From: Escherichia coli
GTDB lineage: Bacteria; Pseudomonadota; Gammaproteobacteria; Enterobacterales; Enterobacteriaceae
Assembly: GCF_044324785.1 (NCBI RefSeq)
Contig: NZ_CP172127.1
Direction: 5' to 3' (one strand)
DNA length: 64,000 bases
The notes beneath the pieces are model-generated. The model saw only the letters and a list, made by a program, of their open reading frames with translations, did not search any database and was not told where the DNA came from. Made by a program: the position numbers and the translations under genes. Positions 30,692 through 63,805 of the stretch are shown here, one piece after another (positions within the stretch are counted from its first letter, which is position 1; the number at the start of each line of letters is the position of its first letter).

Positions 30692-30746
30692 GGTGATGCT
30701 GCCAACTTACTGATTTAGTGTATGATGGTGTTTTTGAGGTGCTCCA

Positions 30747-31022
30747 GTGGCTTCTGTTTCTATCAGCTGTCCCTCCTGTTCAGCTACTGACGGGGTGGTG
30801 CGTAACGGCAAAAGCACCGCCGGACATCAGCGCTATCTCTGCTCTCACTGCCGTAAAACATGGCAACTGCAGTTCACTTACACCGCTTCTCAACCCGGTA
30901 CGCACCAGAAAATCATTGATATGGCCATGAATGGCGTTGGATGCCGGGCAACTGCCCGCATTATGGGCGTTGGCCTCAACACGATTTTACGTCACTTAAA
31001 AAACTCAGGCCGCAGTCGGTAA
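30747..31022 (+). CDS. insA: IS1 InsA (91 aa)
   Basis: [43 protein letters not shown]... zinc-finger/HTH InsA. Confidence 0.95.
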
Positions 31023-31444
31023 CCTCGCGCATACAGCCGGGCAGTGACGTCATCGTCTGCGCGGAAATGGACGAACAGTGGGGCTATGTCGGGGCTAAAT
31101 CGCGCCAGCGCTGGCTGTTTTACGCGTATGACAGTCTCCGGAAGACGGTTGTTGCGCACGTATTCGGTGAACGCACTATGGCGACGCTGGGGCGTCTTAT
31201 GAGCCTGCTGTCACCCTTTGACGTGGTGATATGGATGACGGATGGCTGGCCGCTGTATGAATCCCGCCTGAAGGGAAAGCTGCACGTAATCAGCAAGCGA
31301 TATACGCAGCGAATTGAGCGGCATAACCTGAATCTGAGGCAGCACCTGGCACGGCTGGGACGGAAGTCGCTGTCGTTTTCAAAATCGGTGGAGCTGCATG
31401 ACAAAGTCATCGGGCATTATCTGAACATAAAACACTATCAATAA
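30941..31444 (+). CDS. insB: IS1 InsB reading frame (expressed as InsAB' by -1 frameshift)
   Basis: 167-aa ORF in the -1 frame overlapping the insA 3' end. Confidence 0.9.
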
Positions 31445-31459
31445 GTTGGAGTCATTACC

Positions 31460-34267: not shown

Positions 34268-35200
34268 ATGAGGAACGGAATGATGAATAATAAAGTCAGC
34301 TTCACTAACAGCAATAATCCAACCATCTCTTTGTCTGCAGTGATCTATTTCCCTCCAAAATTTGATGAAACCCGTCAGTATCCGGCAATTGTGGTATCTC
34401 ACCCAGGTGGGGGCGTTAAAGAGCAAACGGCCGGAACCTATGCCGAAAAACTGGCGGAAAAGGGATTTGTCACTATTGCTTATGACGCATCTTATCAAGG
34501 TGAAAGCGGCGGCGAGCCGCGTCAGTTAGAAAACCCATACATTCGTACTGAAGACGTCAGTGCCGTGATTGATTACCTGACAACGCTTTCTTATGTCGAC
34601 AATACCCGAATTGGTGCGATGGGAATTTGTGCCGGTGCAGGATATACAGCCAATGCTGCAATTCAGGATCGCCGCATCAAGGCCATCGGTACTGTTAGTG
34701 CGGTCAATATTGGTTCGATGTTCCGTAATGGTTGGGAAAACAATGTGAAATCTATTGATGCCCTACCATACGTTGACGCGGGTTCAAACGCCCGAACCAG
34801 CGATATTAGCAGCGGAGAATACGCCACTATGCCACTGGCACCAATGAAGGAGTCCGATGCGCCGAACGAAGAACTGCGTCAGGCCTGGGAGTATTACCAC
34901 ACCCCTCGCGCGCAGTATCCAACAGCACCGGGTTACGCTACTTTGCGCAGCCTTAACCAGATTATTACCTATGATGCTTACCATATGGCGGAAGTGTACC
35001 TGACTCAGCCGATACAGATTGTGGCGGGCAGCCAGGCAGGGAGCAAATGGATGAGTGACGACCTGTACGATCGAGCATCAAGCCAGGATAAACGCTATCA
35101 CATTGTTGAAGGCGCAAACCATATGGATCTTTATGACGGCAAAGCCTATGTGGCTGAAGCAATTTCAGTATTAGCTCCGTTCTTTGAGGAAACTCTGTAA
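34268..35200 (+). CDS. ycjY: alpha/beta hydrolase, dienelactone-hydrolase-like with Cys nucleophile, YcjY (310 aa)
   Basis: GxCxG nucleophile elbow (MGICAGAG) in an alpha/beta-hydrolase-like sequence; start may be a few codons downstream. Confidence 0.8.
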   Translation: MRNGMMNNKVSFTNSNNPTISLSAVIYFPPKFDETRQYPAIVVSHPGGGVKEQTAGTYAEKLAEKGFVTIAYDASYQGESGGEPRQLENPYIRTEDVSAVIDYLTTLSYVDNTRIGAMGICAGAGYTANAAIQDRRIKAIGTVSAVNIGSMFRNGWENNVKSIDALPYVDAGSNARTSDISSGEYATMPLAPMKESDAPNEELRQAWEYYHTPRAQYPTAPGYATLRSLNQIITYDAYHMAEVYLTQPIQIVAGSQAGSKWMSDDLYDRASSQDKRYHIVEGANHMDLYDGKAYVAEAISVLAPFFEETL

Positions 35201-36132
35201 TGAAACATATTCAAATCCGCAATAGTGATATGGCCTGGCATATTGCTGCCAATATTCAGTTTCCACCAAATTTTGATGAGTCAAAACAGTATCCGGCGAT
35301 TATCAGCGTCCATCCTTTTGGCAGTTGTAAGGAGCAGACGTCTGGCAATATCTATGGCAAGGCATTGGCTGAAAAAGGCTATGTCGTTCTCGCTTATGAC
35401 GCCAGTTTCCAGGGAGAATCTGGTGGGGAGCCTCGTTGGATAGAAGATCCGACACAGCGCGTTGAGGATATTAGCCGTGTTATCGATTATGCAGTAACTC
35501 TGCCATATGTTGATGCTGAACGCATTGGCGTGCTGGGTGTGTGTGGGGGGGGTGGCTATGCCATTAATGCCGCGCTGACAGAAAAACGAATTAAAGCTGT
35601 AGTGAGTATTACGGGTGTTAATATCGGGCGTCTTTTTCGAGAAGGTTTCAGCAATTACGATCCGATTGGCGCATTGAATGCAATGGCGTCGCAACGAACC
35701 AAAGAGGCTCGTGGTGGAGAATTACAGATCAACGAATTACTTCCCGCCAGCCTGGATGCAGCAAAAGCCCATGGACTGACCGAACGCGATGTTTATGAAG
35801 CAACTGACTACTATAAAACACCACGCGGGCAACAACCGGGAGGTGCGACAAAAATGTTGTTCTCACATGCACAGAAAACGCTGGCCTGGGATGCCTTCGC
35901 ATTTACTGAAGTGTTACTGACTCAGCCGGTGATGGTAGTAGTTGGTGAAAAAGTCGGTGCCTTCGGTGCTTATCGTGATGGACTGGAAGTCTATGGCCGG
36001 GCGATGGTTTCGCAGGATCGTCAGTTAGTTTCGTTACCCGATTTCTCACATTATGAACTGTATGACAAACCGGAAGCAGTTCAGGAGGCGCTGGAAAAAG
36101 TTATTCCTTTTTTCAACACCCATCTGGGATAA
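35200..36132 (+). CDS. paralogous alpha/beta hydrolase with Cys nucleophile (310 aa); corresponds in position to a region I recall as the K-12 ymjD remnant
   Basis: Clear paralog of the upstream gene (shared blocks AYDASFQGESGGEPR, LGVCGGGG); start overlaps ycjY stop. Confidence 0.75.
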   Translation: MKHIQIRNSDMAWHIAANIQFPPNFDESKQYPAIISVHPFGSCKEQTSGNIYGKALAEKGYVVLAYDASFQGESGGEPRWIEDPTQRVEDISRVIDYAVTLPYVDAERIGVLGVCGGGGYAINAALTEKRIKAVVSITGVNIGRLFREGFSNYDPIGALNAMASQRTKEARGGELQINELLPASLDAAKAHGLTERDVYEATDYYKTPRGQQPGGATKMLFSHAQKTLAWDAFAFTEVLLTQPVMVVVGEKVGAFGAYRDGLEVYGRAMVSQDRQLVSLPDFSHYELYDKPEAVQEALEKVIPFFNTHLG

Positions 36133-41104: not shown

Positions 41105-42166
41105 TTATTTTTCGCTGGGCGTTTTGCCTTTTTGCAGCGTTTCTTTCACCTGACCGATAAGCTGACGACGGAAATCCCCAAGGCGAGGTTTGTCATCGTC
41201 AATCCACGGCAGAGGGCGGCAAAGCTCCATAGCTTTAATCCCCAGTCGTGCCGTCAGAAGTCCAGCACCAATCCCCTGAGCTGCCCGGGTAGACAAACGC
41301 GCAGCGAGATCTTGCGACATCCAGTCCATCCCCACTTCGCGCACCAGTTCGCTGGCCCCGGCGAAAGCGATATTCAGCAATACCAGCTTAAACAGGCGCA
41401 AACGGCTGTAATATCCCAGTTCAATGCCATACAGCGTGGCGATGCGATTGATCAAACGCAGATTGCGCCAGGCGATAAATGCCATATCCACCAGCGCCAG
41501 CGGGCTAACGGCGATCATCAACGTTGATTCCGCTGCCGAACGGCTGATTTCGCGCCGCGCCTGGGCATCTAAAACTGGCTGGACCAGATGAGCATACAGG
41601 CTGACCACTTCACGATCGTTCTGCGTTTCATGGATTGAGGCATACCAGCGTTGCAGTGCCGGATGCGACTGGTCGATGCCCGCCTGCTGCGCCAGTTTTT
41701 CGCAAAATGCGCGGCCTTTACCCGTGCCGTGACTGTGCAACAAATCGCGCGCTTCGTCGCGTTCATGGGCGCGCTGTCGCAAGCGCCATAAGCGCCGCCA
41801 CTCTGTTACCACAGAACCTACGCCAGCGCCGATAATCAATGCCCCAGCGGCACATCCACCCAGCGCTACCCAATCCTGAGTTTGCCAGGCGTTCATTGTC
41901 CACTGTACGCCCTGCCCGACAACGCTTGCGCCAAACAGAGCCAGCCCGCCCATCACCATTTTGCGCCACAGGCTGCGTTTCGGACGTAACGCTGCGTCCA
42001 TCACCGCTTCAACTTGCCCTTCTTCTTCCGGTGCTTCGTCGAGCGTGGCCGGAGCAAAATTTTGCGCCTGATTTTCGTCAAAGGTCTGCTGCGCCCTGAA
42101 TTTTGGATTCTGATCGACCTCCAGTGGACCGTCGAAATCAATACGTGGTTTTAACGGTTCGGTCAT
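41105..42166 (-). CDS. ycjF: UPF0283 inner-membrane protein YcjF (353 aa)
   Basis: 353 aa; start overlaps ycjX stop (4 nt). Confidence 0.85.
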
Positions 42167-43560
42167 CGCAATTTATCTCCTATTAAAAATTCCAGCGCAG
42201 CATCAAGACGAATATGCGGCAGCGGTTTGTCGACATCCATCACCTGCGGACGAAACGCCTCAAACTGGAAGCCTTGCTTATCCCAGAACGCCTGACCAGG
42301 TAAACGTGCGGGAACTTCGCCAGGATAAACAGTGAGCGGTGCGCCATCGCTGAGTCGATTACCGCGCAGCGCCGGGATTTTCTCACCGTTAACATCAATA
42401 ATGCCGCTGGTGGTCGCCTGAACTGACGCCAGCCCCAGGCAGTCCATGCTGATCCCTTCGAAAGCCGCATTTTGCCAGGCATCCTGAATTAGTTGTTGCA
42501 GTAATGAAACCATATTGGCGTGCTGATCGATGGTCACATGGTCTGCTTTAGTGGCAGCAAACAATAGCTTATCGATAACCGGCGAAAACAAACGCCGGAA
42601 CAGGGTTCGCTGCCCGTAGTGGAAACTTTGCATCAGCTGCGTCAGCGCCAGACGCATATCATTAAATGCCTGTGGCCCACTGTTGAGAGGCTGCAGGCAA
42701 TCCACCAGCACAATCTGGCGGTCAAAGCGCAGAAAATGATTCTTATAGAATCCCTTCACCACTTTCTCGCAGTAATAATTAAACCGCTCGCGCAGCATTC
42801 CGGCATTGGTATGCTTATCGGCCTGCGCCAGTTTGGACTCGCCCCAGGCATCGACATCCGGCCACGGGAAGAATTGCAGCGCGGGCGCACCTGCCATATC
42901 TCCCGGCAAGACAAAGCGCCCAGGCTGAATAAAGTGCAACCCCTGCTGTTTGCAGTGGTGGAGATACTCGGTCCAGGCGGCGGCAATGTCTGCCAGCCGG
43001 TTTTCGTCGGCAGGCGCTAGCGGATCCAGCCCTTCGCACATCATTCGCCATTTCGCCGACCATTCGCCGCGCTGACCATTAAGTAAGCCCGTCATCTGGC
43101 GCGACCAGCTTAAATAGTCCTGCGCCAACATCGGCAGATCGAGCAGCCATTCGCCGGGATAATCCACAATCTCCAGATACAGCGTGGAGGTGTCCTTGAA
43201 GTGGCGTAGCAGCGAATCGTTCGATTTAAAACGTAACGCCAGGCGAATTTCACTGACGCCGCGCGTAGGCGTCGGCCAGGCGGGAGGATCGCCATATAAC
43301 TGCGCCAACCCTTCATCATAGGTGAAGCGCGGAATGCCAAAGTCACGCTGGGGAATGCGTTTTACGCCCAGCAGGCGCTCTTCACGCACCGCACTTAAAA
43401 GCGGCAAACGTGCTCCGGCATGAATATTGAGCAACTGATTAACCATCGCGGTGATAAACGCTGTTTTGCCGCTGCGGCTAAGTCCGGTTACAGCGAGGCG
43501 CAGATGTCTGTCGACACCCCGATTCACCAGCGCATTAAGTTCATTTTTAAGTCGCTTCAT
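42163..43560 (-). CDS. ycjX: P-loop NTPase YcjX (DUF463) (465 aa)
   Basis: 465 aa; Walker A GLSRSGKT. Confidence 0.85.
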
Positions 43561-43678
43561 TGCTGTCCTGTGCCAGAAAGCTGTAGAAAGGATTAGATAC
43601 TGGAGATAATAATGTGGGTTAATTTTGATTTATCAAATGAATAAGCGGCGTTGTTTACACCGCTCAATAAGTAATTTG

Positions 43679-43993
43679 TTAACCTTTGACCTTCGGCATT
43701 GCGATGTCTTTCAGGCCACCGGCGTTCTCAACGTGGGTATATCCCATCTCGCTAAGGATCTCTTTTGCCTGCCCTGACTGGCGTCCGGCATTGCAATACA
43801 CTTTCACGGTGTCGTTTTTATCCGGAACGGCGGTGGCAATGCGCTCTTTTACTTCCTTCAGGGGAATATTGATGGCCCCCTGAACGTGCTCTTGCTGATA
43901 CTGCTCTGGAACACGAACATCGATCCAGTGTTCAGCGGCGAAAACGGGCAGTGAAAACACCAGTGTCAGAGCAAGTAAGCCTTTTTTAAACAT
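43679..43993 (-). CDS. pspE: periplasmic rhodanese (thiosulfate sulfurtransferase) PspE (104 aa)
   Basis: signal peptide; rhodanese active-site Cys in YCNAGRQS. Confidence 0.9.
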   Translation of the reverse strand: MFKKGLLALTLVFSLPVFAAEHWIDVRVPEQYQQEHVQGAINIPLKEVKERIATAVPDKNDTVKVYCNAGRQSGQAKEILSEMGYTHVENAGGLKDIAMPKVKG

Positions 43994-44067: not shown

Positions 44068-44289
44068 TCACCTTTTATAACGCTGCGCCAGTTTATTGGC
44101 AGCCCGACTTAACAGCGGTTCCAGCGCCACGGCCAGCAACATTTTCAGTGGTCGGCGAGCAACTGATTTTATCGCCCAGCCAGCTACACCCGCCGGGCCA
44201 TAGCGCAGTGCGGTAAGAAGTACCAGCTTGCCTGCTAATTTGAAACCAGGCTTCACCTTTTGCCCGGCCTGTTGCCAGCGAGTATTCAT
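44068..44289 (-). CDS. pspD: phage-shock protein D (73 aa)
   Basis: ORF track 44068..44301 trimmed to [10 protein letters not shown]. Confidence 0.85.
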
Positions 44290-44297
44290 AACTTTCC

Positions 44298-44657
44298 TCA
44301 CAGTTGACGGAAACGGCTACGTAACGTGAAAGTATCGGAAGTGACATAACGTTCCATCTCGCGTAAACGCGTTTCACTTGCCGCCAGTTCACGGTCGACT
44401 TCATCCAACAATTCGCTGCTGGAAGGTAGCTGCTCACCAAAGGCCATGTTGTCCGGCATTGGATCAAGCGCAAATGACAAAATGATGTAAGCAACCAGGG
44501 TAAACAGCGCCAGACCGAAGAAAATCGACAGCACCACCAGGATACGCACCAGTTTTACCGGTACATCAAAATAGTTGGCAATCCCGGCGCAAACGCCGCG
44601 TACCATGCCCTGCTGCGGAATACGCCATAATTTTTTATTGAGATTAATGCCCGCCAT
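44298..44657 (-). CDS. pspC: phage-shock protein C (119 aa)
   Basis: 119 aa with single TM; overlaps pspB stop. Confidence 0.9.
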
Positions 44658-44881
44658 TAGCGATCCCTCCAGTTCGGATGTTCTGCATCAAGAATAGATT
44701 CCAGCGCCTGAGTACGTTCGCGCATCCGTTTTGCTTCATCAGCCAGTTGCGCTAATCGCTGCTGCTCACTTTGCGACAATTCACTGCGACCAGAACGATT
44801 GCTGTAATGCAGCCATAACCAGATCGGTAAAACAAACAGCACAAAAATGGTTAACGGAATAGCCAGAAATAGCGCGCTCAT
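44657..44881 (-). CDS. pspB: phage-shock protein B (74 aa)
   Basis: 74 aa with N-terminal TM helix. Confidence 0.9.
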   Translation of the reverse strand: MSALFLAIPLTIFVLFVLPIWLWLHYSNRSGRSELSQSEQQRLAQLADEAKRMRERTQALESILDAEHPNWRDR

Positions 44882-44934
44882 AAGGACTCCTTAGACGATG
44901 AGCGGCGGCGCGTTCGGACGCCGCCTGGATGTTA

Positions 44935-45675
<741 letters not shown>

Positions 45676-46782: not shown

Positions 46783-46786
46783 GAAT
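46783..46786. repeat. 4-bp direct repeat (GAAT) flanking the left end of the IS3-family element; lies within the left half of a split REP palindrome
   Basis: left flank ...gccggatgcggcgtGAAT | TGAACTGCACCCC... Confidence 0.6.
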
Positions 46787-47310
46787 TGAACTGCACCCCA
46801 AATGTTGGACATAATCTGACATCTGAAGGTGCAGTTTATGAAACATTCATTTGAAGTAAAACTTGCCGCTGTAAATCATTACCTGGCTGGTCATGCAGGC
46901 ATCATTTCTACGGCAAAACTCTTTCAACTTTCTCACACCAGCCTCTCACACTGGATTAATCTTTTTCTTCTTCACGGTCCTCGGGCACTGGATTGCAGAC
47001 ACAAGCGTAGCTATTCTCCTGAAGATAAACTTTGCGTGGTTCTTTATGCTCTCGGGCATTCTGAGTCTCTACCCCGGGTAGCTGCCCGGTTTAACATTCC
47101 CAGCCACAACACGGTTAAAAACTGGATAAAAGGCTACCGCAAATCTGGTAATGAGGCCTTTATCAGGCGCAGGAAGGAGAAAAGCATGACCCGTTCTGAT
47201 GATACCCATGAAAACGAGGCAAACATGACGCCGGAAGAGATGAAGAATGAGCTGCGTTATCTTCGCGCAGAAAATGCATATCTGAAAGCCATGCAGGAGC
47301 ATCTCCTGGA

Positions 47311-48218
<908 letters not shown>

Positions 48219-48313: not shown

Positions 48314-49579
48314 TTAATCTTTCAGCGCATCCTGCAAAATTTTCATTGCCGCATCGAATTGCGCATCCGGGATGGTCAGCGGATACAGGAAACGAATCAC
48401 GTTGCCGTATGCGCCACAGGTCAGCAGAAGCAGCCCCTGCGCCAGCGCGCGTTGCTGGATTTTCTGTGCAATCGCCGCTGACGGCTCGCCCGTTTGCGGA
48501 TCGTTAAACTCTGCCGCAATCATAGACCCCAGACCGCGTACCGCCGCGATGGCCGGAACGCTTTCTTTGGCATCAATCAACGTGTTTGTCAGGCGCTGGC
48601 CCAGTTGATTCGCGCGTTCACAGAGTGATTCTTTGTCGATAATGTTGAGCACAGCGTGCGCGGCAGCCACCGCCAGCGGGTTCCCGGCGTAAGTACCACC
48701 CAACCCGCCCGGCGCGGGCGCGTCCATAATATTCGCGTTACCGACCACGCCCGAAAGCGGCATGCCGCCTGCGAGGCTTTTCGCCATCGTCATTAAGTCC
48801 GGCTTATCGGCGTAGTGATCCATGGCAAACAGTTTACCGGTACGCGCAAAGCCGCTTTGCACTTCATCGGCAATCATCACAATGCCGTGCTCGTCGCACA
48901 GGCGGCGAATGGCGGCAACCAGCTCTTTGGGTGCAACGTTGAAACCGCCCTCGCCCTGCACCGGTTCGAAAATAATCGCCGCCACCTGCTTCGCTTCAAT
49001 GTCCGATTTAAACAAGCGTTCGATGGCGTCGAGGGAGTCCTGCGTTGAAACGCCATGTAAATCTGACGGATAAGGTACGTGATATACCGAACCGGGGAAC
49101 GGGCCGAAGCCGATTTTGTACGGCGCGACCTTTCCGGTCAGCGCCATGGTCATATATGTACGACCGTGGAAGCCGCCGCTAAACGCAATCACGCCAGGGC
49201 GTCCGGTATGGGCGCGGGCGATTTTCACCGCGTTCTCCACCGCTTCCGCACCGGTAGTGAAGAACGCAGTTTTAGCCTGCCCGCTCACCGGGGCAAGGGC
49301 GTTGATTTTCTCCGCCAGGGTGACGTAGCTTTCGTACGGCACAATCTGATACGCCGTGTGGGTAAACTGTTGCAATTGCTGCTCCACCGCCGCGACCAGA
49401 TCAGGGTGGCGATGCCCGGTATTCAGCACCGCAATGCCTGCGGCGAAATCGATATATTCGTTGCCCTCTACATCCTTCAGCGTGGCGTTTTCTGCCGACT
49501 GGGCGAAGAAGTTACACATCACGCCAACCCCGCGTGGGGTAGCAGAAAGACGACGCTGATGGAATTCATTGTTGCTCAT
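48314..49579 (-). CDS. puuE: 4-aminobutyrate aminotransferase PuuE (421 aa)
   Basis: class-III PLP aminotransferase; 421 aa. Confidence 0.95.
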   Translation of the reverse strand: MSNNEFHQRRLSATPRGVGVMCNFFAQSAENATLKDVEGNEYIDFAAGIAVLNTGHRHPDLVAAVEQQLQQFTHTAYQIVPYESYVTLAEKINALAPVSGQAKTAFFTTGAEAVENAVKIARAHTGRPGVIAFSGGFHGRTYMTMALTGKVAPYKIGFGPFPGSVYHVPYPSDLHGVSTQDSLDAIERLFKSDIEAKQVAAIIFEPVQGEGGFNVAPKELVAAIRRLCDEHGIVMIADEVQSGFARTGKLFAMDHYADKPDLMTMAKSLAGGMPLSGVVGNANIMDAPAPGGLGGTYAGNPLAVAAAHAVLNIIDKESLCERANQLGQRLTNTLIDAKESVPAIAAVRGLGSMIAAEFNDPQTGEPSAAIAQKIQQRALAQGLLLLTCGAYGNVIRFLYPLTIPDAQFDAAMKILQDALKD

Positions 49580-49616
49580 GTTTCACACCTTTTGACTCTT
49601 CACTGTTAATCGGAAA

Positions 49617-50897
49617 TTAAACGCCCAGACGATCGCGCAGGCTGTAATAAGCCGCGCCCATCGCGGTAAATGGCACGCGCAGCGTGCGCCCGCCGGGGAA
49701 CGGGTAATGCGGCAGATTGGCGAAGGCGTCGAAGCGTTCGGCGTCACCGCGCAGCAGTTCAGCAATCAAACGCCCGGCAAGATGGGTACAGGTGACGCCG
49801 TGGCCGCTGTAACCCTGCATGTAATAGATGTTGGTATCAAGGCGACCGAACTGCGGCATGCGCGACAAGGTCAGCAGGAAGTTGCCCGTCCAGCGGTAAT
49901 CAATTTTCACGCCCTTCAGCTGCGGGAAGGTTTTCAGCAGTTTCGGCACAACAAGACGCTCAACGTCATCTGGGTCGCGCGCGCCGTAGACCACGCCGCC
50001 GCCGTACAGCAGGCGGTTATCGGCAGTCAGGCGGTAGTAATCAAGCAGATAGTTACAGTCTTCCACGCAGTAGTTTTTCGGGATCAGCGAACGGGCTAAA
50101 TCATCGGAAAGCCGCTCGGTGGTGATCACCTGCGTACCGCACGGCATGCTGCGTTTCGCTAGTTCCGGCTCTACTTTATCGCCCAGATACGCATTCCCGG
50201 CGACAACCACATACTTCGCCGTCACCTGACCATTGGCAGTCCGCACCACGGCTGGCGTGGTGTGCTGGATCTGCGTCACGGCGGAAAGCTCATACACGCG
50301 CCCGCCGTTCAGGCGGATGGCATCGGCTTCACCAATGGCGAGGTTTAGCGGGTGAATATGCCCACCGCTGTGATCCAGCAGCGCACCAGTGTAGCGATCG
50401 CTGGCGACCTCGCGGCGAATAGCGTTGGCGTCCAGCAGCTCCAGCTGTTTATTGCCGTAGCGTTCCCAGTTCTCTTTCTGCTCTTCGAGTGTGGCGAGTT
50501 GTTTATCATTCATCGCCACAAACAGACCGCCGGGGCGATAGTCGCAGTCAATCTGATAACGTTTGATACGTTCGCGGATGATCTCGCCACCCTCGAACAT
50601 CATGCTGCCGAGCATACGGGCGGTGTCCATGCCGTAGCTTTTTTCGATCACGTCGATGTCGCGGCTGTAGGAGTTCACAAGCTGCCCGCCGTTGCGTCCG
50701 CTTGCGCCGAAGCCGATGCGTGAGGCTTCAAGAACCACCACGTCAAAGCCCGCTTCTGCCAGATGCAGCGCGGAGGAAAGCCCGGTATAGCCGCCGCCGA
50801 CCACGCAAACATCGCAGGAAATCGACTCATTCAGTGTGTCGAATGGCGCGTATTTATTCGCACTGGCGGCGTAATAACTGCTGGTATGTTCGGTCAT
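49617..50897 (-). CDS. puuB: gamma-glutamylputrescine oxidase PuuB (426 aa)
   Basis: FAD-binding GxGxxG (VCVVGGGYTG). Confidence 0.95.
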   Translation of the reverse strand: MTEHTSSYYAASANKYAPFDTLNESISCDVCVVGGGYTGLSSALHLAEAGFDVVVLEASRIGFGASGRNGGQLVNSYSRDIDVIEKSYGMDTARMLGSMMFEGGEIIRERIKRYQIDCDYRPGGLFVAMNDKQLATLEEQKENWERYGNKQLELLDANAIRREVASDRYTGALLDHSGGHIHPLNLAIGEADAIRLNGGRVYELSAVTQIQHTTPAVVRTANGQVTAKYVVVAGNAYLGDKVEPELAKRSMPCGTQVITTERLSDDLARSLIPKNYCVEDCNYLLDYYRLTADNRLLYGGGVVYGARDPDDVERLVVPKLLKTFPQLKGVKIDYRWTGNFLLTLSRMPQFGRLDTNIYYMQGYSGHGVTCTHLAGRLIAELLRGDAERFDAFANLPHYPFPGGRTLRVPFTAMGAAYYSLRDRLGV

Positions 50898-50898
50898 T

Positions 50899-52386
50899 TC
50901 AGGCCTCCAGGCTTATCCAGATGGTTTTCAGTTCGGTGAATTTTTCAAGGGCATGCAGGGATTTGTCGCGACCGTTGCCGCTCTGCTTATAGCCGCCAAA
51001 CGGCACTGTCATATCGCCATCGTTGTAGTTATTGACGAAGACGGAACCGGCTTTCAGGCGGCGACTCATGCGGTGCGCGCGGGAGAGGTCGCGCGTCCAT
51101 ACTGCCGCGCCGAGGCCGTACTGGCTGTCGTTAGCAAGCTGAAGCGCCTGATCTTCTGATGTGAAACGCGTGACCACCAACACCGGGCCGAAAATCTCTT
51201 CGCGGCTTAAGGACGCATTCGGGTCTACATCCACAAAGATGGTCGGGCCGATGGCGGCAGCCAGCTCGGCGTTACGGCCATCCAGCAGCAGTTGCCCTTT
51301 GCCTTCGCCTTCACGAATAAAGCTATGCACCGAGTCGGCGTGGGCGCAGTCGATTAAGGTGCCCATGGTGGTTGCGGGATCAAGTGGATGGCCCGGCTGC
51401 CAGTTTTGCGCCTGCTGTTTTAACAGGGCTAAGAATTCATCGGCGATGCTCTCTTCCAGCAACAAACGCGTTCCGGCGATGCACACCTGGCCCTGGTTGT
51501 AGAAAATGCCTGCGGCGGTGGCGCTTGCCGCCTGTTGCAAATTCGGGCAGTCGGCGAAAACGATGTTGGCGCTTTTGCCGCCCGCCTCCAGCCAGACGCG
51601 TTTCATGTTGCTGTCGCCCGCGTCCTTCAGCAGCTGTTTCCCGGTGCGGGTTGAGCCAGTAAAGGCAATGGCATCGATATCGTTATGGCGCGAAAGCGCC
51701 TGCCCGGCTTCATGACCAAAACCCGTCACCACGTTCAACACACCATCCGGCAGCCCCGCGTCTTTCGCCAGCCCCGCGAGACGAATCGCACTGAGCGGTG
51801 ATTTTTCAGACGGTTTTAGAATCACGCTGTTTCCCGCCGCCAGCGCCGGGCCGAGTTTCCAGCAAGTCAGCAGCAGCGGGAAGTTCCACGGCACGATGGC
51901 GGCAATCACGCCGACCGGTTCACGCACGATCATCGCCAGCTCATGGCTACTGGTGGTCGCCACTTCGCCATACACTTTGTCGATCGCTTCGGCGTACCAG
52001 CGAATGGCGCGCGCCGCGCCGGGAATATCATCACGCAGGCTGTGACGAATCGGTTTACCGGTGTCGAGCGTTTCCAGCAGTGCCAGCTCTTCGGCGTTGG
52101 CTTCCATTAAATCGGCGAGTTTATTCAGTACCGCTTTACGTTTAGCCGGAGAAGAGAGTGACCAGTCGCCGCGTTCAAATACGCCGCGTGCTGCGCTCAC
52201 CGCACGGTCGATATCGACGCTCTTGCCGCGGGCAATTTTCGCCAGCGGTGCCTGGGTGACCGGATCAACGGTTTCAAAAGTTTCATTTTCCGCCGCAGCA
52301 GTATATTCACCGTTAATAAATAAGCGGGTTTCAATGGCGAGACTTAACGCTTTATCCTGCCAGTAAGCCAGATGATGAAAATTCAT
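50899..52386 (-). CDS. puuC: gamma-glutamyl-gamma-aminobutyraldehyde dehydrogenase PuuC (495 aa)
   Basis: ORF track 50899..52482 trimmed to MNFHHLAYWQ; aldehyde dehydrogenase family. Confidence 0.9.
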   Translation of the reverse strand: MNFHHLAYWQDKALSLAIETRLFINGEYTAAAENETFETVDPVTQAPLAKIARGKSVDIDRAVSAARGVFERGDWSLSSPAKRKAVLNKLADLMEANAEELALLETLDTGKPIRHSLRDDIPGAARAIRWYAEAIDKVYGEVATTSSHELAMIVREPVGVIAAIVPWNFPLLLTCWKLGPALAAGNSVILKPSEKSPLSAIRLAGLAKDAGLPDGVLNVVTGFGHEAGQALSRHNDIDAIAFTGSTRTGKQLLKDAGDSNMKRVWLEAGGKSANIVFADCPNLQQAASATAAGIFYNQGQVCIAGTRLLLEESIADEFLALLKQQAQNWQPGHPLDPATTMGTLIDCAHADSVHSFIREGEGKGQLLLDGRNAELAAAIGPTIFVDVDPNASLSREEIFGPVLVVTRFTSEDQALQLANDSQYGLGAAVWTRDLSRAHRMSRRLKAGSVFVNNYNDGDMTVPFGGYKQSGNGRDKSLHALEKFTELKTIWISLEA

Positions 52387-52535
52387 TATGACTCCTGTTT
52401 CACGTCTATCAGATATATGCAGTTTGTGAACGTCAGGGCGCAGAGATCCCCGGGCCGTATGCCCGTTTATTTCTGGCGACATTCTTTATAGATTGCCGGG
52501 CGCATTGCGCTTACCCGGCTTACAGAACAAAAAGA

Positions 52536-53093
52536 TTAAAACGTGGTGGGCGTATGGGCGCTGATAATTCGGCAAATACCTGCCGACGTATTACTGAAAC
52601 TGTGCGGGATGCCGGTATTAATGGCATAACTTTGCCCCGCGACGAGGTGGTAATCCTGACCATTAATCGTCAGAACAATTTCACCTTCCAGTACAGTGCC
52701 TATTTCCTCACCCTGATGCTTAATTCTTTCCCCAGTGGTTGTGCCCGGCTGGTAAGTTTCAAAGATCATCGCCAGCGTGCGATTCGGGTTACCGTTATGA
52801 ACCAGCTTCATTGACACACCCTGACTGCCCATCTCAATTAAGTCGTCCTGATTAATGACGACCTGCGGCTCATCAGGTTTTTCCGGCTCGGAAAAGAATT
52901 CCGAGAGTGACAGACCATACACCTTCAGCAGCTTTTGCAGCGTACTTATGGCAGGGCTGACTTTATCTTGTTCTATCGTACTGATAGCACTGTGAGTCAG
53001 CCCGGAGAGTTCGGCGGCACGACGTTGTGAAAGCCCCTGCTGCTGGCGGATTTCCGACAAGCGTTTTCCTGGCGCCAGTCCCTCATCACTCAT
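52536..53093 (-). CDS. puuR: repressor PuuR, HTH_XRE plus cupin (185 aa)
   Basis: 185 aa; N-terminal Xre-type HTH. Confidence 0.9.
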   Translation of the reverse strand: MSDEGLAPGKRLSEIRQQQGLSQRRAAELSGLTHSAISTIEQDKVSPAISTLQKLLKVYGLSLSEFFSEPEKPDEPQVVINQDDLIEMGSQGVSMKLVHNGNPNRTLAMIFETYQPGTTTGERIKHQGEEIGTVLEGEIVLTINGQDYHLVAGQSYAINTGIPHSFSNTSAGICRIISAHTPTTF

Positions 53094-53119
53094 ATTTGCA
53101 TTTCCTTAAACTGTAGTGG

Positions 53120-53884
53120 TCAGAGTCGCTGTTTTTCAGCGATATGGTGCTGACAAGCGGTGATAAAGCCCTCGAACAATATACGCGAAAGCGCGTACTC
53201 GCTACTGTTCCATTCCGGGTGCCACTGTACGCCCAGCGCAAAAGGATGATTGATGACGCTAACCGCCTCAACTAAGCCATCCGGCGAGCGAGCTTCAACA
53301 CGCAACCGTGGGCTAACGACCTTCGCCCCTTGTCCATGCAGAGAGTTTACCCAAAAGTTGCTACATTCAGGTAACAACGCAGACAGTAATCCCCCCTCTT
53401 CAACCAGAACTTCATGCGACGGCGCATATTGCTGCTCCACCGGCAGTTCGGGATCTTCCCGATGTTCCAGCAATTCAGGCTGTTCGCACAGCTTGCGATG
53501 CAACGAACCACCGGTTGCCACCACCAGTTCCTGTAAACCCCGGCAGATGGCGAAAATGGGGATGCGCCTTTCGAGTGCGGCATTAATTAACGCCATGCTC
53601 AGAAGATCACGCCCAGGATCGGCGTCAGGCTCATCGCCGTTTTCACCATATAGGTGCGGCTGCACATTGCTGGGACTACCAGGAAGATAAATACCATCGA
53701 GTTTCGGCAAAAGTTGTTCAAGTAATGACGGTTCCGCCAGCGCATGTGGCAGCGCAATTGGCAAGCCGCCTGCGTGGATGATGGCATTCAGGTACTTTTC
53801 TTGCAGAGTCTGGGTCGCATGACCCTTAAGCCTGTTCCTGCACATTACGACACCGATAACCGGATTGTTCATTATATTTTCCAT
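53120..53884 (-). CDS. puuD: gamma-glutamyl-GABA hydrolase PuuD, class-I glutamine amidotransferase (254 aa)
   Basis: ORF track 53120..53896 trimmed to MENIMNNPVIG; nucleophile Cys in AICRGLQ. Confidence 0.9.
   Translation of the reverse strand: MENIMNNPVIGVVMCRNRLKGHATQTLQEKYLNAIIHAGGLPIALPHALAEPSLLEQLLPKLDGIYLPGSPSNVQPHLYGENGDEPDADPGRDLLSMALINAALERRIPIFAICRGLQELVVATGGSLHRKLCEQPELLEHREDPELPVEQQYAPSHEVLVEEGGLLSALLPECSNFWVNSLHGQGAKVVSPRLRVEARSPDGLVEAVSVINHPFALGVQWHPEWNSSEYALSRILFEGFITACQHHIAEKQRL
53866..53880. promoter_or_regulatory. PuuR-box candidate 1 (overlaps the first codons of puuD)
   Basis: minus-strand AAAATATAATGAACA; first of three repeated 15-mers in the puuD/puuA region. Confidence 0.6.
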
Positions 53885-53942
53885 GCTCAATCTCACAAAG
53901 TGGACTAAATTATCGCCATTACTGCGCTTTAAATGACCTTTA

Positions 53943-53957
53943 TGTTCAATATTTTTT
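53943..53957. promoter_or_regulatory. PuuR-box candidate 2
   Basis: minus-strand AAAAAATATTGAACA. Confidence 0.55.
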
Positions 53958-54037
53958 CAATCTAGCAGTGGGTTTTCATTTTTGCAAACTCAATTTAACA
54001 TTTGACAAACATTTAGTTTGCATACAGATTCGAATGG

Positions 54038-54052
54038 TGGTCATTATATTTT
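54038..54052. promoter_or_regulatory. PuuR-box candidate 3
   Basis: minus-strand AAAATATAATGACCA. Confidence 0.55.
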
Positions 54053-54095
54053 ACGCTTTGATAACGAGCGGAAAACAAACCAAAGGCGAAGAATC

Positions 54096-55514
54096 ATGGA
54101 AACCAATATCGTTGAAGTAGAGAACTTTGTTCAGCAGTCAGAAGAGAGGCGGGGTAGCGCCTTTACGCAGGAAGTGAAACGCTACCTGGAGCGCTACCCG
54201 AATACGCAATATGTTGATGTTTTACTTACCGATTTAAATGGTTGCTTCCGTGGAAAACGTATTCCTGTTTCAAGCCTGAAGAAGCTCGAGAAAGGGTGTT
54301 ATTTCCCGGCCTCGGTATTTGCAATGGATATTCTGGGCAACGTAGTAGAAGAAGCGGGTCTGGGTCAGGAAATGGGCGAACCGGATCGTACCTGTGTTCC
54401 TGTTCTCGGTTCCTTAACCCCTTCTGCCGCCGATCCAGAGTTTATCGGTCAGATGCTCCTGACCATGGTCGATGAAGATGGCGCTCCCTTTGACGTTGAG
54501 CCGCGGAACGTTCTTAACCGCCTGTGGCAGCAGCTGCGCCAGCGCGGATTGTTCCCGGTCGTAGCGGTAGAGCTGGAGTTCTATTTACTGGATCGCCAGC
54601 GCGACGCTGAAGGGTATCTGCAACCGCCCTGCGCGCCTGGCACCGATGACCGCAATACACAAAGCCAGGTTTACTCCGTTGATAACCTCAACCACTTCGC
54701 CGACGTGCTCAATGATATTGATGAGCTGGCGCAGTTACAGCTGATTCCGGCAGATGGCGCGGTCGCCGAGGCCTCGCCAGGTCAGTTTGAAATCAATCTT
54801 TACCATACCGATAACGTGCTGGAAGCTTGCGATGATGCGCTGGCACTAAAACGCCTGGTGCGTCTGATGGCAGAAAAGCATAAGATGCACGCCACTTTTA
54901 TGGCGAAGCCGTATGAAGAGCACGCGGGCAGCGGGATGCATATCCATATCAGTATGCAAAATAATCGTGGCGAGAACGTGCTTTCTGACGCGGAAGGCGA
55001 AGATTCGCCGCTGCTGAAAAAGATGCTCGCCGGGATGATTGACCTGATGCCGTCATCAATGGCGTTGCTGGCACCAAACGTGAACTCGTATCGCCGCTTC
55101 CAGCCGGGAATGTATGTGCCGACGCAGGCGTCGTGGGGCCATAACAACCGCACCGTTGCCCTGCGTATTCCGTGCGGCGATCGTCATAATCACCGCGTGG
55201 AATATCGCGTGGCGGGTGCCGATGCCAACCCATATCTGGTGATGGCAGCGATTTTTGCCGGTATTTTGCATGGCCTTGATAACGAGCTGCCGTTGCAGGA
55301 AGAAGTCGAAGGCAACGGGCTGGAACAGGAAGGCTTACCCTTCCCGATTCGCCAGAGCGATGCCCTGGGTGAGTTTATCGAGAATGATCACCTGCGCCGC
55401 TATTTAGGCGAACGCTTCTGCCATGTCTATCACGCCTGTAAAAATGATGAGCTGTTGCAGTTTGAGCGCCTCATCACAGAAACAGAAATTGAGTGGATGT
55501 TGAAAAACGCGTAA
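54096..55514 (+). CDS. puuA: gamma-glutamylputrescine synthetase PuuA, glutamine-synthetase family (472 aa)
   Basis: ORF track 54018..55514 trimmed to METNIVEVENF. Confidence 0.95.
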   Translation: METNIVEVENFVQQSEERRGSAFTQEVKRYLERYPNTQYVDVLLTDLNGCFRGKRIPVSSLKKLEKGCYFPASVFAMDILGNVVEEAGLGQEMGEPDRTCVPVLGSLTPSAADPEFIGQMLLTMVDEDGAPFDVEPRNVLNRLWQQLRQRGLFPVVAVELEFYLLDRQRDAEGYLQPPCAPGTDDRNTQSQVYSVDNLNHFADVLNDIDELAQLQLIPADGAVAEASPGQFEINLYHTDNVLEACDDALALKRLVRLMAEKHKMHATFMAKPYEEHAGSGMHIHISMQNNRGENVLSDAEGEDSPLLKKMLAGMIDLMPSSMALLAPNVNSYRRFQPGMYVPTQASWGHNNRTVALRIPCGDRHNHRVEYRVAGADANPYLVMAAIFAGILHGLDNELPLQEEVEGNGLEQEGLPFPIRQSDALGEFIENDHLRRYLGERFCHVYHACKNDELLQFERLITETEIEWMLKNA

Positions 55515-55816
55515 TACCCCTTGCGGGGTTGTTTCATCGGCCTGAGCGGAGCCAGGCCTGACATTTGCTGGTAATCCAGACATTTTCCGGATGTCGCGTT
55601 ATGGAGCGCAGGCGGCAACGGGCTTCCGTTAACGATTAAGACTGTGACGAGGAAATGAGATGATGCCGATGATTAAATCCCCGCATGGCGAGGGAGGCTG
55701 CGTATGCGCCCCTCCTGCGACTGACTGGACTCCGCCCCCTTTGCTTCCCTTGCTAAACAGGTTTGATTTCAGGTCGACACGACCGCAAACCTTATTACGC
55801 AGGGGAGGCAGCAATT

Positions 55817-57202
55817 ATGGCTATTAATTCACCACTGAATATTGCTGCGCAACCCGGCAAAACCCGTCTGCGAAAATCACTGAAATTGTGGCAGGTGGTG
55901 ATGATGGGTCTGGCCTATCTCACGCCGATGACTGTGTTCGATACCTTTGGTATTGTCTCCGGCATTAGCGACGGTCACGTTCCGGCGTCCTATTTGCTGG
56001 CGCTGGCGGGCGTGCTGTTTACCGCTATCAGCTACGGCAAACTGGTTCGCCAGTTTCCGGAAGCCGGTTCGGCCTATACCTACGCGCAAAAGTCGATTAA
56101 CCCGCACGTCGGATTTATGGTCGGCTGGTCATCGCTGCTGGATTATCTCTTTTTGCCGATGATCAACGTCTTGTTGGCGAAAATCTATCTCTCCGCCCTC
56201 TTCCCGGAAGTGCCGCCGTGGGTGTGGGTGGTAACCTTCGTCGCCATTTTAACCGCCGCGAATCTGAAGAGCGTCAACCTGGTCGCAAACTTCAATACCC
56301 TGTTTGTACTGGTGCAAATCTCCATCATGGTGGTGTTTATCTTCCTGGTGGTTCAGGGACTGCATAAAGGAGAAGGCGTTGGCACCGTCTGGTCACTTCA
56401 GCCGTTTATCAGCGAGAACGCGCACCTGATCCCGATTATTACCGGGGCGACGATTGTCTGTTTCTCCTTCCTCGGTTTCGATGCGGTGACCACGCTTTCG
56501 GAAGAGACGCCGGACGCCGCACGCGTGATCCCTAAAGCCATCTTCCTGACGGCGGTATACGGCGGCGTTATCTTTATCGCTGCGTCGTTCTTTATGCAGC
56601 TGTTCTTTCCCGATATCAGCCGCTTTAAAGACCCGGACGCCGCACTGCCTGAAATTGCGCTGTACGTCGGCGGCAAGCTCTTCCAGTCGATTTTCCTCTG
56701 CACCACGTTTGTGAACACGTTAGCGTCTGGCCTGGCTTCACATGCCAGCGTGTCGCGTCTGCTGTATGTGATGGGGCGTGACAATGTGTTTCCGGAGCGC
56801 GTGTTTGGCTATGTGCACCCGAAATGGCGCACGCCAGCGCTGAACGTCATTATGGTCGGGATTGTTGCGCTGTCGGCGCTGTTCTTTGATTTAGTCACCG
56901 CGACAGCATTGATTAACTTCGGTGCTCTGGTGGCATTTACCTTCGTAAATCTGTCGGTGTTTAATCATTTCTGGCGGCGTAAAGGAATGAATAAAAGCTG
57001 GAAGGATCACTTCCACTATTTGCTGATGCCGCTGGTTGGCGCGCTGACGGTGGGTGTGCTGTGGGTTAACCTCGAGTCAACGTCACTGACACTCGGTTTG
57101 GTATGGGCTTCATTAGGCGGCGCATATTTGTGGTATCTGATCCGCCGCTATCGCAAAGTGCCGTTGTATGATGGTGACAGAACGCCGGTGAGCGAAACGT
57201 AA
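55817..57202 (+). CDS. puuP: putrescine importer PuuP, APC family (461 aa)
   Basis: ORF track 55763..57202 trimmed to [12 protein letters not shown]; 12-TM amino-acid/polyamine permease pattern. Confidence 0.9.
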
Positions 57203-62369: not shown

Positions 62370-63176
62370 ATGATCGAAACGTTGCTTGAAGTGCGTAATT
62401 TAAGTAAAACGTTCCGCTACCGGACCGGCTGGTTTCGTCGTCAGACCGTAGAAGCGGTAAAACCCTTGAGCTTTACGCTACGTGAAGGCCAGACACTGGC
62501 GATCATTGGCGAGAATGGTTCTGGTAAATCCACGCTGGCAAAAATGCTGGCGGGAATGATAGAACCTACCAGCGGCGAGTTATTGATTGACGATCATCCG
62601 CTGCATTTTGGCGATTATTCCTTCCGCAGTCAGCGTATCCGCATGATTTTTCAGGATCCTTCGACCTCGTTGAATCCCCGTCAACGTATCTCGCAAATTC
62701 TGGATTTTCCACTGCGTCTGAACACCGATCTGGAACCTGAACAGCGTCGCAAACAGATTATTGAAACGATGCGTATGGTTGGGCTGCTACCGGATCACGT
62801 CAGTTACTATCCGCATATGTTGGCACCCGGGCAAAAACAGCGTCTGGGGCTGGCGCGCGCGCTGATATTGCGCCCAAAAGTCATTATTGCCGATGAAGCC
62901 CTCGCCTCACTGGATATGTCGATGCGTTCGCAGTTGATTAATCTGATGCTGGAGTTACAGGAAAAACAGGGCATTTCGTATATTTATGTTACCCAGCATA
63001 TCGGAATGATGAAGCACATTAGCGACCAGGTGCTGGTGATGCATCAGGGCGAGGTTGTCGAGCGAGGCAGCACCGCGGATGTGCTGGCATCGCCGCTGCA
63101 TGAACTCACCAAACGGCTTATTGCCGGTCATTTTGGCGAGGCATTGACGGCGGATGCGTGGCGTAAGGACCGTTAA
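62370..63176 (+). CDS. sapF: ABC ATPase SapF (268 aa)
   Basis: Walker A GENGSGKS. Confidence 0.95.
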   Translation: MIETLLEVRNLSKTFRYRTGWFRRQTVEAVKPLSFTLREGQTLAIIGENGSGKSTLAKMLAGMIEPTSGELLIDDHPLHFGDYSFRSQRIRMIFQDPSTSLNPRQRISQILDFPLRLNTDLEPEQRRKQIIETMRMVGLLPDHVSYYPHMLAPGQKQRLGLARALILRPKVIIADEALASLDMSMRSQLINLMLELQEKQGISYIYVTQHIGMMKHISDQVLVMHQGEVVERGSTADVLASPLHELTKRLIAGHFGEALTADAWRKDR

Positions 63177-63805
63177 CAGGTTTCCTGGCTAGTACAATAT
63201 TCTTCACCGATAGCATCAGGGTCGATAAAGGGATACTCATTTTGCATAATATCCTGTAAATATTGTGCAAAATTAACAGCAATGACCTGATAGCTATCGG
63301 GATCATGTAAATAACGAACAATTTGTCCAGATTTTCCTTTTGGAGATGGAGAAAAGTCGATATATAAACGTGAAGTGCCGCCATTATTAATGCAATGAGC
63401 AAAACAGAGCCAGCGATGAAACGGTACAGTTGGATCTATACGTTCATCAACATCGACTTCGTCCATTTGCCCATCGTAGATTTTCATGATGGATTCCTGA
63501 CCAAACCATGACTTTCTTTCCTCCAAAATCTGCTGGGCAGACTGGAGATAATAGGGATATTCTCCGCCTTCAACATCCGCCCCTAAAACGGGTAAAAATA
63601 CCTTTTTATCCTGATGTTGTTGAAAATAAGTTCCCTTGATCTGGCGAAGCAAACCGAGTAAATCCTCCGAAGAATCAGGATATTCATGGAGAAGTTCTGT
63701 TATATCGCTTTCTTGCGCTCCAGACAGTGTTGCAAATAATGCCCTGACATCCGTTGGCAAATGTGCGGCAAGCCCGGCCAAATATTCCTGATACATTGTC
63801 ATCAT
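63173..63805 (-). CDS. uncharacterised acidic cytoplasmic protein (210 aa), convergent with sapF; possibly SMI1/KNR4 (SUKH)-like, unverified
   Basis: 210-aa ORF MMTMYQEYLAGLAAHLPTDVRALF...; no signal peptide or TM segment; 4-bp convergent overlap with sapF stop; does not resemble the 117-aa YcjD I expect next to sapF in K-12. Confidence 0.6.
   Translation of the reverse strand: MMTMYQEYLAGLAAHLPTDVRALFATLSGAQESDITELLHEYPDSSEDLLGLLRQIKGTYFQQHQDKKVFLPVLGADVEGGEYPYYLQSAQQILEERKSWFGQESIMKIYDGQMDEVDVDERIDPTVPFHRWLCFAHCINNGGTSRLYIDFSPSPKGKSGQIVRYLHDPDSYQVIAVNFAQYLQDIMQNEYPFIDPDAIGEEYCTSQETC

Follow-up and report, generated by a model that had tools for sequence, protein, structure and literature searches.

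An uninterrupted pspE/ycjX junction in Escherichia coli is probably the ancestral, empty allele of an old ycjM-ycjW presence/absence polymorphism

The window, by which we mean the whole 64-kb stretch of Escherichia coli DNA analysed here, carries tyrR, ycjF, ycjX / pspE, pspD, pspC, pspB and pspA in that order, followed by the divergent pspF. The first-pass annotation singled out the junction within this series, where pspE and ycjX were said to lie 118 bp apart (43561-43678), and this distance is exact, the ycjX start lying at 43560 and the pspE stop at 43679. The features at and around the junction are as follows.

42163..43560, minus strand: ycjX, 465 aa, YcjX-family GTP-binding protein, the first gene of ycjX-ycjF(-tyrR) (ORF, and annotation in matching genomes)
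43561..43678, minus strand: spacer between pspE and ycjX, 118 bp, representing the ycjM-ycjW block site in its unoccupied ('empty') form
43561..43573, minus strand: part of the ycjX leader, 13 nt long and reading GCACAGGACAGCA on the minus strand; nothing else in the spacer is significantly shared with block-bearing K-12
43574..43659, minus strand: central part of the spacer, specific to this allele; block-bearing E. coli give no megablast match to it
43609..43636, minus strand: promoter-like element for ycjX, TTGATA-16-CATTAT (consensus scan)
43642..43666, minus strand: intrinsic-terminator-like hairpin closing the psp operon, with a 10-bp stem, a 5-nt loop and a T-rich tail (consensus scan)
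43679..43993, minus strand: pspE, 104 aa, rhodanese / thiosulfate sulfurtransferase, the last gene of pspABCDE (ORF and annotation)
44068..45603, minus strand: pspD, pspC, pspB and pspA, the remainder of the phage-shock operon (ORFs, and annotation of the colinear locus L001)

The first-pass annotation placed the K-12 genes ycjM to ycjW, with ompG, between pspE and ycjX, and noted that this block appears absent here. The K-12 gene order that it gave is right. In the K-12 derivative ER1709 (locus L002) the two genes are not neighbours; 14,113 bp separate the start of ycjX from the stop of pspE, so that the stated size of about 13 kb was slightly low, and the interval holds the twelve expected genes, ycjM, ycjN, ycjO, ycjP, ycjQ, ycjR, ycjS, ycjT, pgmB (ycjU), ycjV, ompG and ycjW. 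None of these twelve K-12 genes has a blastn match in the 64-kb window, which bears out the absence. In both genomes the flanking genes have the same order and orientation, with nucleotide identities of 99.0% for pspE and 96-97% for ycjX, and in both a terminator hairpin follows pspE and a TTGATAA-type promoter motif precedes ycjX; what K-12 has in addition, unlike the window, is the 14,113 bp with its 12 genes, together with intergenic edges that are non-homologous to the window's spacer beyond 13 nt. The block is also carried by the B2 strain ATCC 25922 and by strains E04, O157:H7, O91:H21 and E09. The uninterrupted join in the window is thus real, yet it is an ordinary accessory-gene polymorphism at a variable spot.

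Read from pspE toward ycjX, the spacer would form a compact functional unit, in which a predicted terminator hairpin of the psp operon is followed by a predicted ycjX promoter. The first-pass annotation saw only a small hairpin in it; the hairpin stands, the word 'only' does not, a promoter-like element being present as well. The putative rho-independent terminator combines a stem-loop, a T-rich tail (TTCATTTGAT in the consensus scan, a weak U tract) and a position after the last gene of the operon. The 130-nt region around it folds better than 200 of 200 shuffles (z = -2.8), and the hairpin is kept in seven Escherichia and Citrobacter sequences, with compensatory changes at five of its ten pairs. 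An Rfam search of the spacer for structured RNA gave no match at E<=1. The promoter-like element can also be read as TTGATAA…CCCACAT, which resembles the sigma-32 type, and a sigma-70-like reading is possible as well; a true sigma-32 promoter would have a TTGAAA-like -35 and a CCCCATNT-like -10 at the correct spacing and would respond to heat. TTGATAA…CCCACAT keeps its position in other Escherichia and in Citrobacter spacers, as it does ahead of ycjX in K-12 and Enterobacter, and a sigma-32 promoter has been reported for K-12 ycjX (PMC3041696, citing Nonaka 2006).

The first-pass annotation left two possibilities side by side, a deletion in this lineage or an insertion in K-12, and comparison beyond E. 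coli is what separates them. We located the psp and ycj genes around ycjX in 80 loci, one genome per species, a set from which E. fergusonii, E. marmotae, E. ruysiae and Salmonella are absent. In these loci pspF/pspABC(D)(E) lies directly upstream of ycjXF in nearly all Enterobacterales, and the same adjacency of psp and ycjXF is found in Photobacterium, Grimontia, Aliivibrio, Salinivibrio and Aeromonas; the juxtaposition of psp and ycjX across these taxa is therefore a deep ancestral arrangement. The linkage itself has been described before as an 'extended psp operon' (Darwin 2005; Huvet et al. 2011, PMC3041696). As in the window, ycjX in other Enterobacterales comes straight after the last psp gene, although most other genera are without pspE, and the junction there is pspD/ycjX or pspC/ycjX. 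Within Escherichia, pspE adjoins ycjX in E. albertii (L005) and in SCPM-O-B-8794 (L006).

The spacer tells the same story at the nucleotide level. Its whole length is colinear with the uninterrupted spacers of E. albertii and SCPM-O-B-8794, and it aligns more distantly and partly with that of Citrobacter youngae. In the 80 nt that precede ycjX the window is 89% identical to E. albertii and 90% identical to SCPM-O-B-8794, the same level as the 88-95% nucleotide identity of the flanking genes to those Escherichia; against K-12, by contrast, the flanking genes are 96-99% identical and the same 80 nt only 59%, as low as in comparisons between genera. The junction alignment against K-12 and other E. 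coli that the first-pass annotation had proposed is equally clear: the K-12 left and right edges, joined, do not give the window's spacer, and the best local alignment of the spacer to these edges has a score of 13, corresponding to the 13 nt that abut the ycjX ATG, a score reached by 1 of 2,000 shuffles. About 105 bp of the spacer thus have no K-12 counterpart and are present in other Escherichia, and the spacer therefore descends from an uninterrupted junction. Judged from these sequences, interruption of the pspE/ycjX spacer is the derived state in E. coli, whichever history the block itself has had. Of the two possibilities originally offered, then, synteny, spacer orthology and the K-12 edges favour insertion, and a fresh deletion falls away; the K-12 state nonetheless appears best described not as a clean insertion but as an exchange, in which about 105 bp of spacer gave way to 14.1 kb whose edges are unrelated to it.

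The genome SCPM-O-B-8794 (NZ_JAATUR010000011.1) is itself labelled Escherichia coli, but across tyrR, ycjF, ycjX and the psp genes its identity to E. coli is no more than 88-95%. Because of this level of nucleotide identity we regard it as probably a cryptic-clade or other Escherichia species deposited as E. coli.

How frequent the two states are can be read from 5,426 complete E. coli genomes. A 920-bp probe over the junction is contiguous in 372 of the 5,426 and split in two places in almost all others; the 118-bp spacer alone is likewise found in 372 genomes, one copy each, always chromosomal and always at 99% identity or more. A probe spanning ycjW-ompG-ycjV-pgmB matches 5,050 of the 5,426, and the two counts add up to 5,422, so that the empty and occupied states, whose complementarity is judged on these totals and not genome by genome, look mutually exclusive and together make up nearly the whole collection. 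The empty state thus accounts for about 7% of complete E. coli genomes and the block for about 93%. There is a single empty allele, all 372 spacers being at least 99% identical, and the 920-bp contexts in which it sits differ by up to 1.7%. In block-bearing genomes megablast aligns the 920-bp query at 1-413 and 500-920 only, the match ending at window position 43573 on the ycjX side and restarting at 43660 or 43679 on the pspE side; some 86-105 bp of the spacer are therefore allele-specific.

The borders of the K-12 block bear no marks of mobility. The first-pass annotation suggested a search for short direct repeats at the borders, and none turned up: the window's spacer has no notable repeats, and neither direct nor inverted repeats were found at the K-12 block borders, where the best match between the left and right intergenic regions is an 11-mer, a length reached by 134 of 2,000 shuffles. 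We found no tRNA attachment site for the block and no integrase, transposase or IS in the annotation of the K-12 block, and at the window's junction no IS sequence or remnant lies in the spacer, the nearest element being an IS1397 3.1 kb off (46786-48218). The GC content of the block is 51.0%, with flanks at 49.9% and 55.3%. With no repeats, no tRNA, no mobility genes and an unremarkable GC content, the block does not qualify as a classical mobile island. The unrelated edges suggest that a foreign segment was brought in, rather than that the block inserted by transposition, and it is from them that we infer how it first entered. Among the genera compared we identified no donor for the K-12-type edges. 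Enterobacter was considered, its ycjW-ycjX spacers sharing the TTGATAATCAA motif, but the identity of 63%, versus 59% to the window, is no meaningful difference. A duplicated ycjX promoter at the ycjM edge, hinted at by a MAFFT alignment, was likewise set aside, the similarity not rising above that of shuffles.

In several E. coli lineages the ycj block is decaying independently. In K-12 ycjV is frameshifted (L002 6121-7202); in O157:H7 AC-3 ycjN is broken by an internal stop and ycjM by a frameshift (L095 15826-18810); in MSB1_4I an internal deletion joins ycjT to a remnant of ycjO (L098 14027-15781); and in ER1821R the block has received an IS1 insertion (hit H156). On the empty side, the soil isolate VCSW7 has a ycjX annotated as a pseudogene, with an internal stop (L094 2603-4000).

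The flanks of the two alleles were compared in 15 genomes, eight of them empty (the window, 1190, 315, Yu5, N3, ST2747, A1_136 and VCSW7) and seven block-bearing (K-12, ATCC 25922, E04, O157:H7, E09, O91:H21 and MSB1_4I). No fixed differences separate the eight from the seven in ycjF, ycjX, pspE, pspD-B, pspA or pspF, which suggests that the alleles are exchanged by homologous recombination, a process that we infer from this pattern. A flank haplotype linked to either state, as would be the signature of long-term balancing selection, was accordingly looked for and rejected, with neither fixed differences nor a divergence peak by the junction in the 15 genomes. E09, which carries the block, does not differ from the window in the first 200 bp of ycjX and diverges from it by 0-1.6% around the junction. 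The empty ST2747, whose spacer is 100% identical to that of the window, belongs to phylogroup D together with UMN026 and 042 (PMC4765171). The genome closest to the window is N3, with 0-7 mismatches per kb across some 45 kb. It too is empty, its divergence from the window stays the same at the junction, and no recombination tract is seen to end there; given the empty state of N3 and this steady divergence, there is no sign of a recent switch of state in the window's lineage. The E09-type strains we take to be O102:H6/ST405, of phylogroup D. If this assignment holds, the polymorphism segregates within phylogroup D, and because both states then occur there, ST2747 being empty, gains or losses at the level of lineages would have occurred within E. 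coli.

Overall, we believe that the window holds the ancestral, never-interrupted pspE/ycjX junction, that is, the empty allele of an old presence/absence polymorphism of a 14.1-kb block, of which the occupied allele arose by replacement and both alleles are exchanged by recombination; we give this reading a probability of roughly 0.8. On this model, about 105 bp of spacer would have been replaced in block-bearing E. coli by the block and its own unrelated intergenic edges, after which both alleles would have persisted side by side, moving between backgrounds by homologous recombination via the psp and ycjX flanks. That same recombination provides the only rival of any weight, one in which a block-bearing ancestor of this strain lost the block by recombination with a pre-existing empty allele of another E. 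coli lineage, so that the allele would still be ancestral and only the state of this lineage secondarily derived. The lack of fixed flank differences between states, the divergence of only 0-1.6% between the window and block-bearing E09 around the junction, and the probable occurrence of both states in phylogroup D (ST2747, PMC4765171, and the E09-type strains) all fit it, as do the 372 spacers, which are at least 99% identical despite contexts that differ by as much as 1.7%, consistent with the spread of one allele. Against this stands the closest relative, N3, which is also empty along the roughly 45 kb compared and shows no shift in divergence at the junction, and we think it unlikely, at something like one chance in six, that the window's own lineage acquired its state in this way.

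A de novo deletion would be a different matter, since it supposes that a K-12-like ancestor lost ycjM-ycjW in a single illegitimate or repeat-mediated event, leaving the 118 bp as a scar. A block that contains no essential genes and is decaying in several lineages could be lost, but no such event can recreate about 105 bp that K-12 lacks and that E. albertii and divergent Escherichia keep colinear. The K-12 borders offer no repeats to mediate it, their best edge match being the 11-mer that shuffling also produces; the junction is not a fusion of left and right K-12 edges, with which only the 13 nt by ycjX are significantly shared; and the terminator and promoter architecture of the spacer is intact. 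We consider such a deletion highly improbable. Slighter still is the chance that a collapsed or misjoined contig has placed pspE beside ycjX in the window: other Escherichia species have the same junction, and its presence in 372 independent complete genomes shows that it is no product of faulty assembly.

Regardless of how the window's lineage came by its allele, the distribution of the block in other genera shows that this boundary is variable well beyond E. coli. In Enterobacter cloacae, from a genus without pspE, the order is pspABCD-[block]-ycjX; in werkmanii-type Citrobacter it is pspABCD-[block]-pspE-ycjX, and the pspE-ycjX spacer is intact there; and in Superficieibacter and Siccibacter the block adjoins ycjX. 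The sister species C. youngae, E. asburiae and E. albertii are without it. The Citrobacter and Enterobacter blocks have the same gene content and order as in E. coli, with ycjW divergent at the ycjX-proximal end, and they too lie between the psp operon and ycjX; unlike in E. coli, the Citrobacter block sits between pspD and pspE, and presence varies by species within each genus. This patchiness, and the placement of the Citrobacter block on the other side of pspE, supports the earlier suggestion that the site is a hotspot of gene-content variation.

The block is also old. Its genes differ by 3-6% between E. coli lineages and by 14-33% at the nucleotide level between E. coli and Citrobacter or Enterobacter, their identities across these genera, 70-86%, being comparable to those of core genes, at 74-83%, and the block is therefore old in each genus. 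It could, to judge from these divergences, predate the split of the genera, in which case some 'empty' states would have arisen by loss, and two histories fit: either the block was inserted long ago on separate occasions, at points slightly apart, or it was present early and was then rearranged and lost more than once. A more ambitious and distinctly tentative reading, which we think possible but would not bet on, makes the psp/ycjX boundary a recurrent cross-genus docking site, where a block of about 14 kb has been installed at least twice without mobility machinery (at pspD/pspE in Citrobacter and at pspE/ycjX in E. coli) and where the alleles are long-lived, possibly as a trans-species polymorphism under niche-dependent selection, gut versus environment. 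Were this true, pspE-dependent sulfur/H2S metabolism would be uncoupled from YcjW and the promoter context of ycjX altered.

The absence of the block limits what can be carried over from K-12. There the LacI-type regulator YcjW, which is responsive to kojibiose, represses ycjMNOPQRSTUV-ompG, and cells that have lost YcjW express more pspE and produce more H2S in a PspE-dependent manner (PMC6599011); the same paper cites work in which YcjT is described as a kojibiose phosphorylase and YcjM as a glucosylglycerate phosphorylase. By extension, about 7% of E. coli should lack kojibiose/glucosylglycerate catabolism, the YcjNOPV transporter, the OmpG porin and the YcjW repressor. In K-12 YcjW influences the expression of pspE (PMC6599011), and the window has no YcjW; since YcjW is missing in strains with the empty allele, the K-12 results on YcjW and pspE are not transferable to them, and in such strains pspE would be free of its influence.

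It has been suggested that ycjM, variably present among E. coli and the cryptic clades, could serve to tell enteric from environmental strains (Deng et al. 2014, Water Res, as cited in PMC13118800). As summarised in that citation, the marker concerns the same variable block, scored as one gene by PCR, and the summary does not extend to the junction, polarity and allele structure worked out here. Presence/absence of ycjM and the psp-ycjXF linkage are thus already known, and what is added is the polarity of the change and the structure of its alleles. The locus provides a worked example in which the absence of a 'missing' block proves to be ancestral, while an accessory operon is maintained as an allele open to exchange, with no mobile-element signature.

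Several other variable sites lie in the same region. A copy of IS1397 (IS3 family, 1,433 bp) occupies window positions 46786-48218, in a REP palindrome loop between pspF and puuE, in the context GCCGGATGCGGCGTGAA|IS|…TGCTTTATCCGGC, with both flanks intact. The E09-type strains, which carry the block and have about 10 IS1397 copies, show the identical left junction, and no genome in the collection has both this insertion and the empty pspE-ycjX junction. The shared site hinted at a recent loss of the block in the window's lineage, an idea that was rejected, the window being N3-like, and so empty, throughout the region and not E09-like. IS1397 is reported to target REP loops, and the shared insertion site may for this reason be independent.

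An IS1 at about 30700-31455 in the window (InsA, 91 aa, 30747-31022; InsB, 167 aa, 30941-31444) abuts the 3' end of mppA, whose ORF is 490 aa here versus an intact 1,614 bp (about 537 aa) in N3 and ATCC 25922; mppA thus appears truncated in the window. In ATCC 25922 (L003 35524-35950) pspF leads almost straight to ymjA, without the puuE-puuP putrescine cluster that is present in the window (48314-57202), K-12, N3 and E09, which makes a second large polymorphism only a few kb from the first. At 34268-36132 the window, like N3, has two adjacent alpha/beta-hydrolase genes of about 310 aa, either a tandem duplicate or an extra gene, where ATCC 25922 has a single ycjY. Downstream of sapF, finally, a 210-aa ORF on the minus strand (63173-63805), annotated in N3 as an SMI1/KNR4 family protein, occupies another variable spot, which is taken by ycjD in K-12 and by an MFS/RND efflux cluster in other strains.
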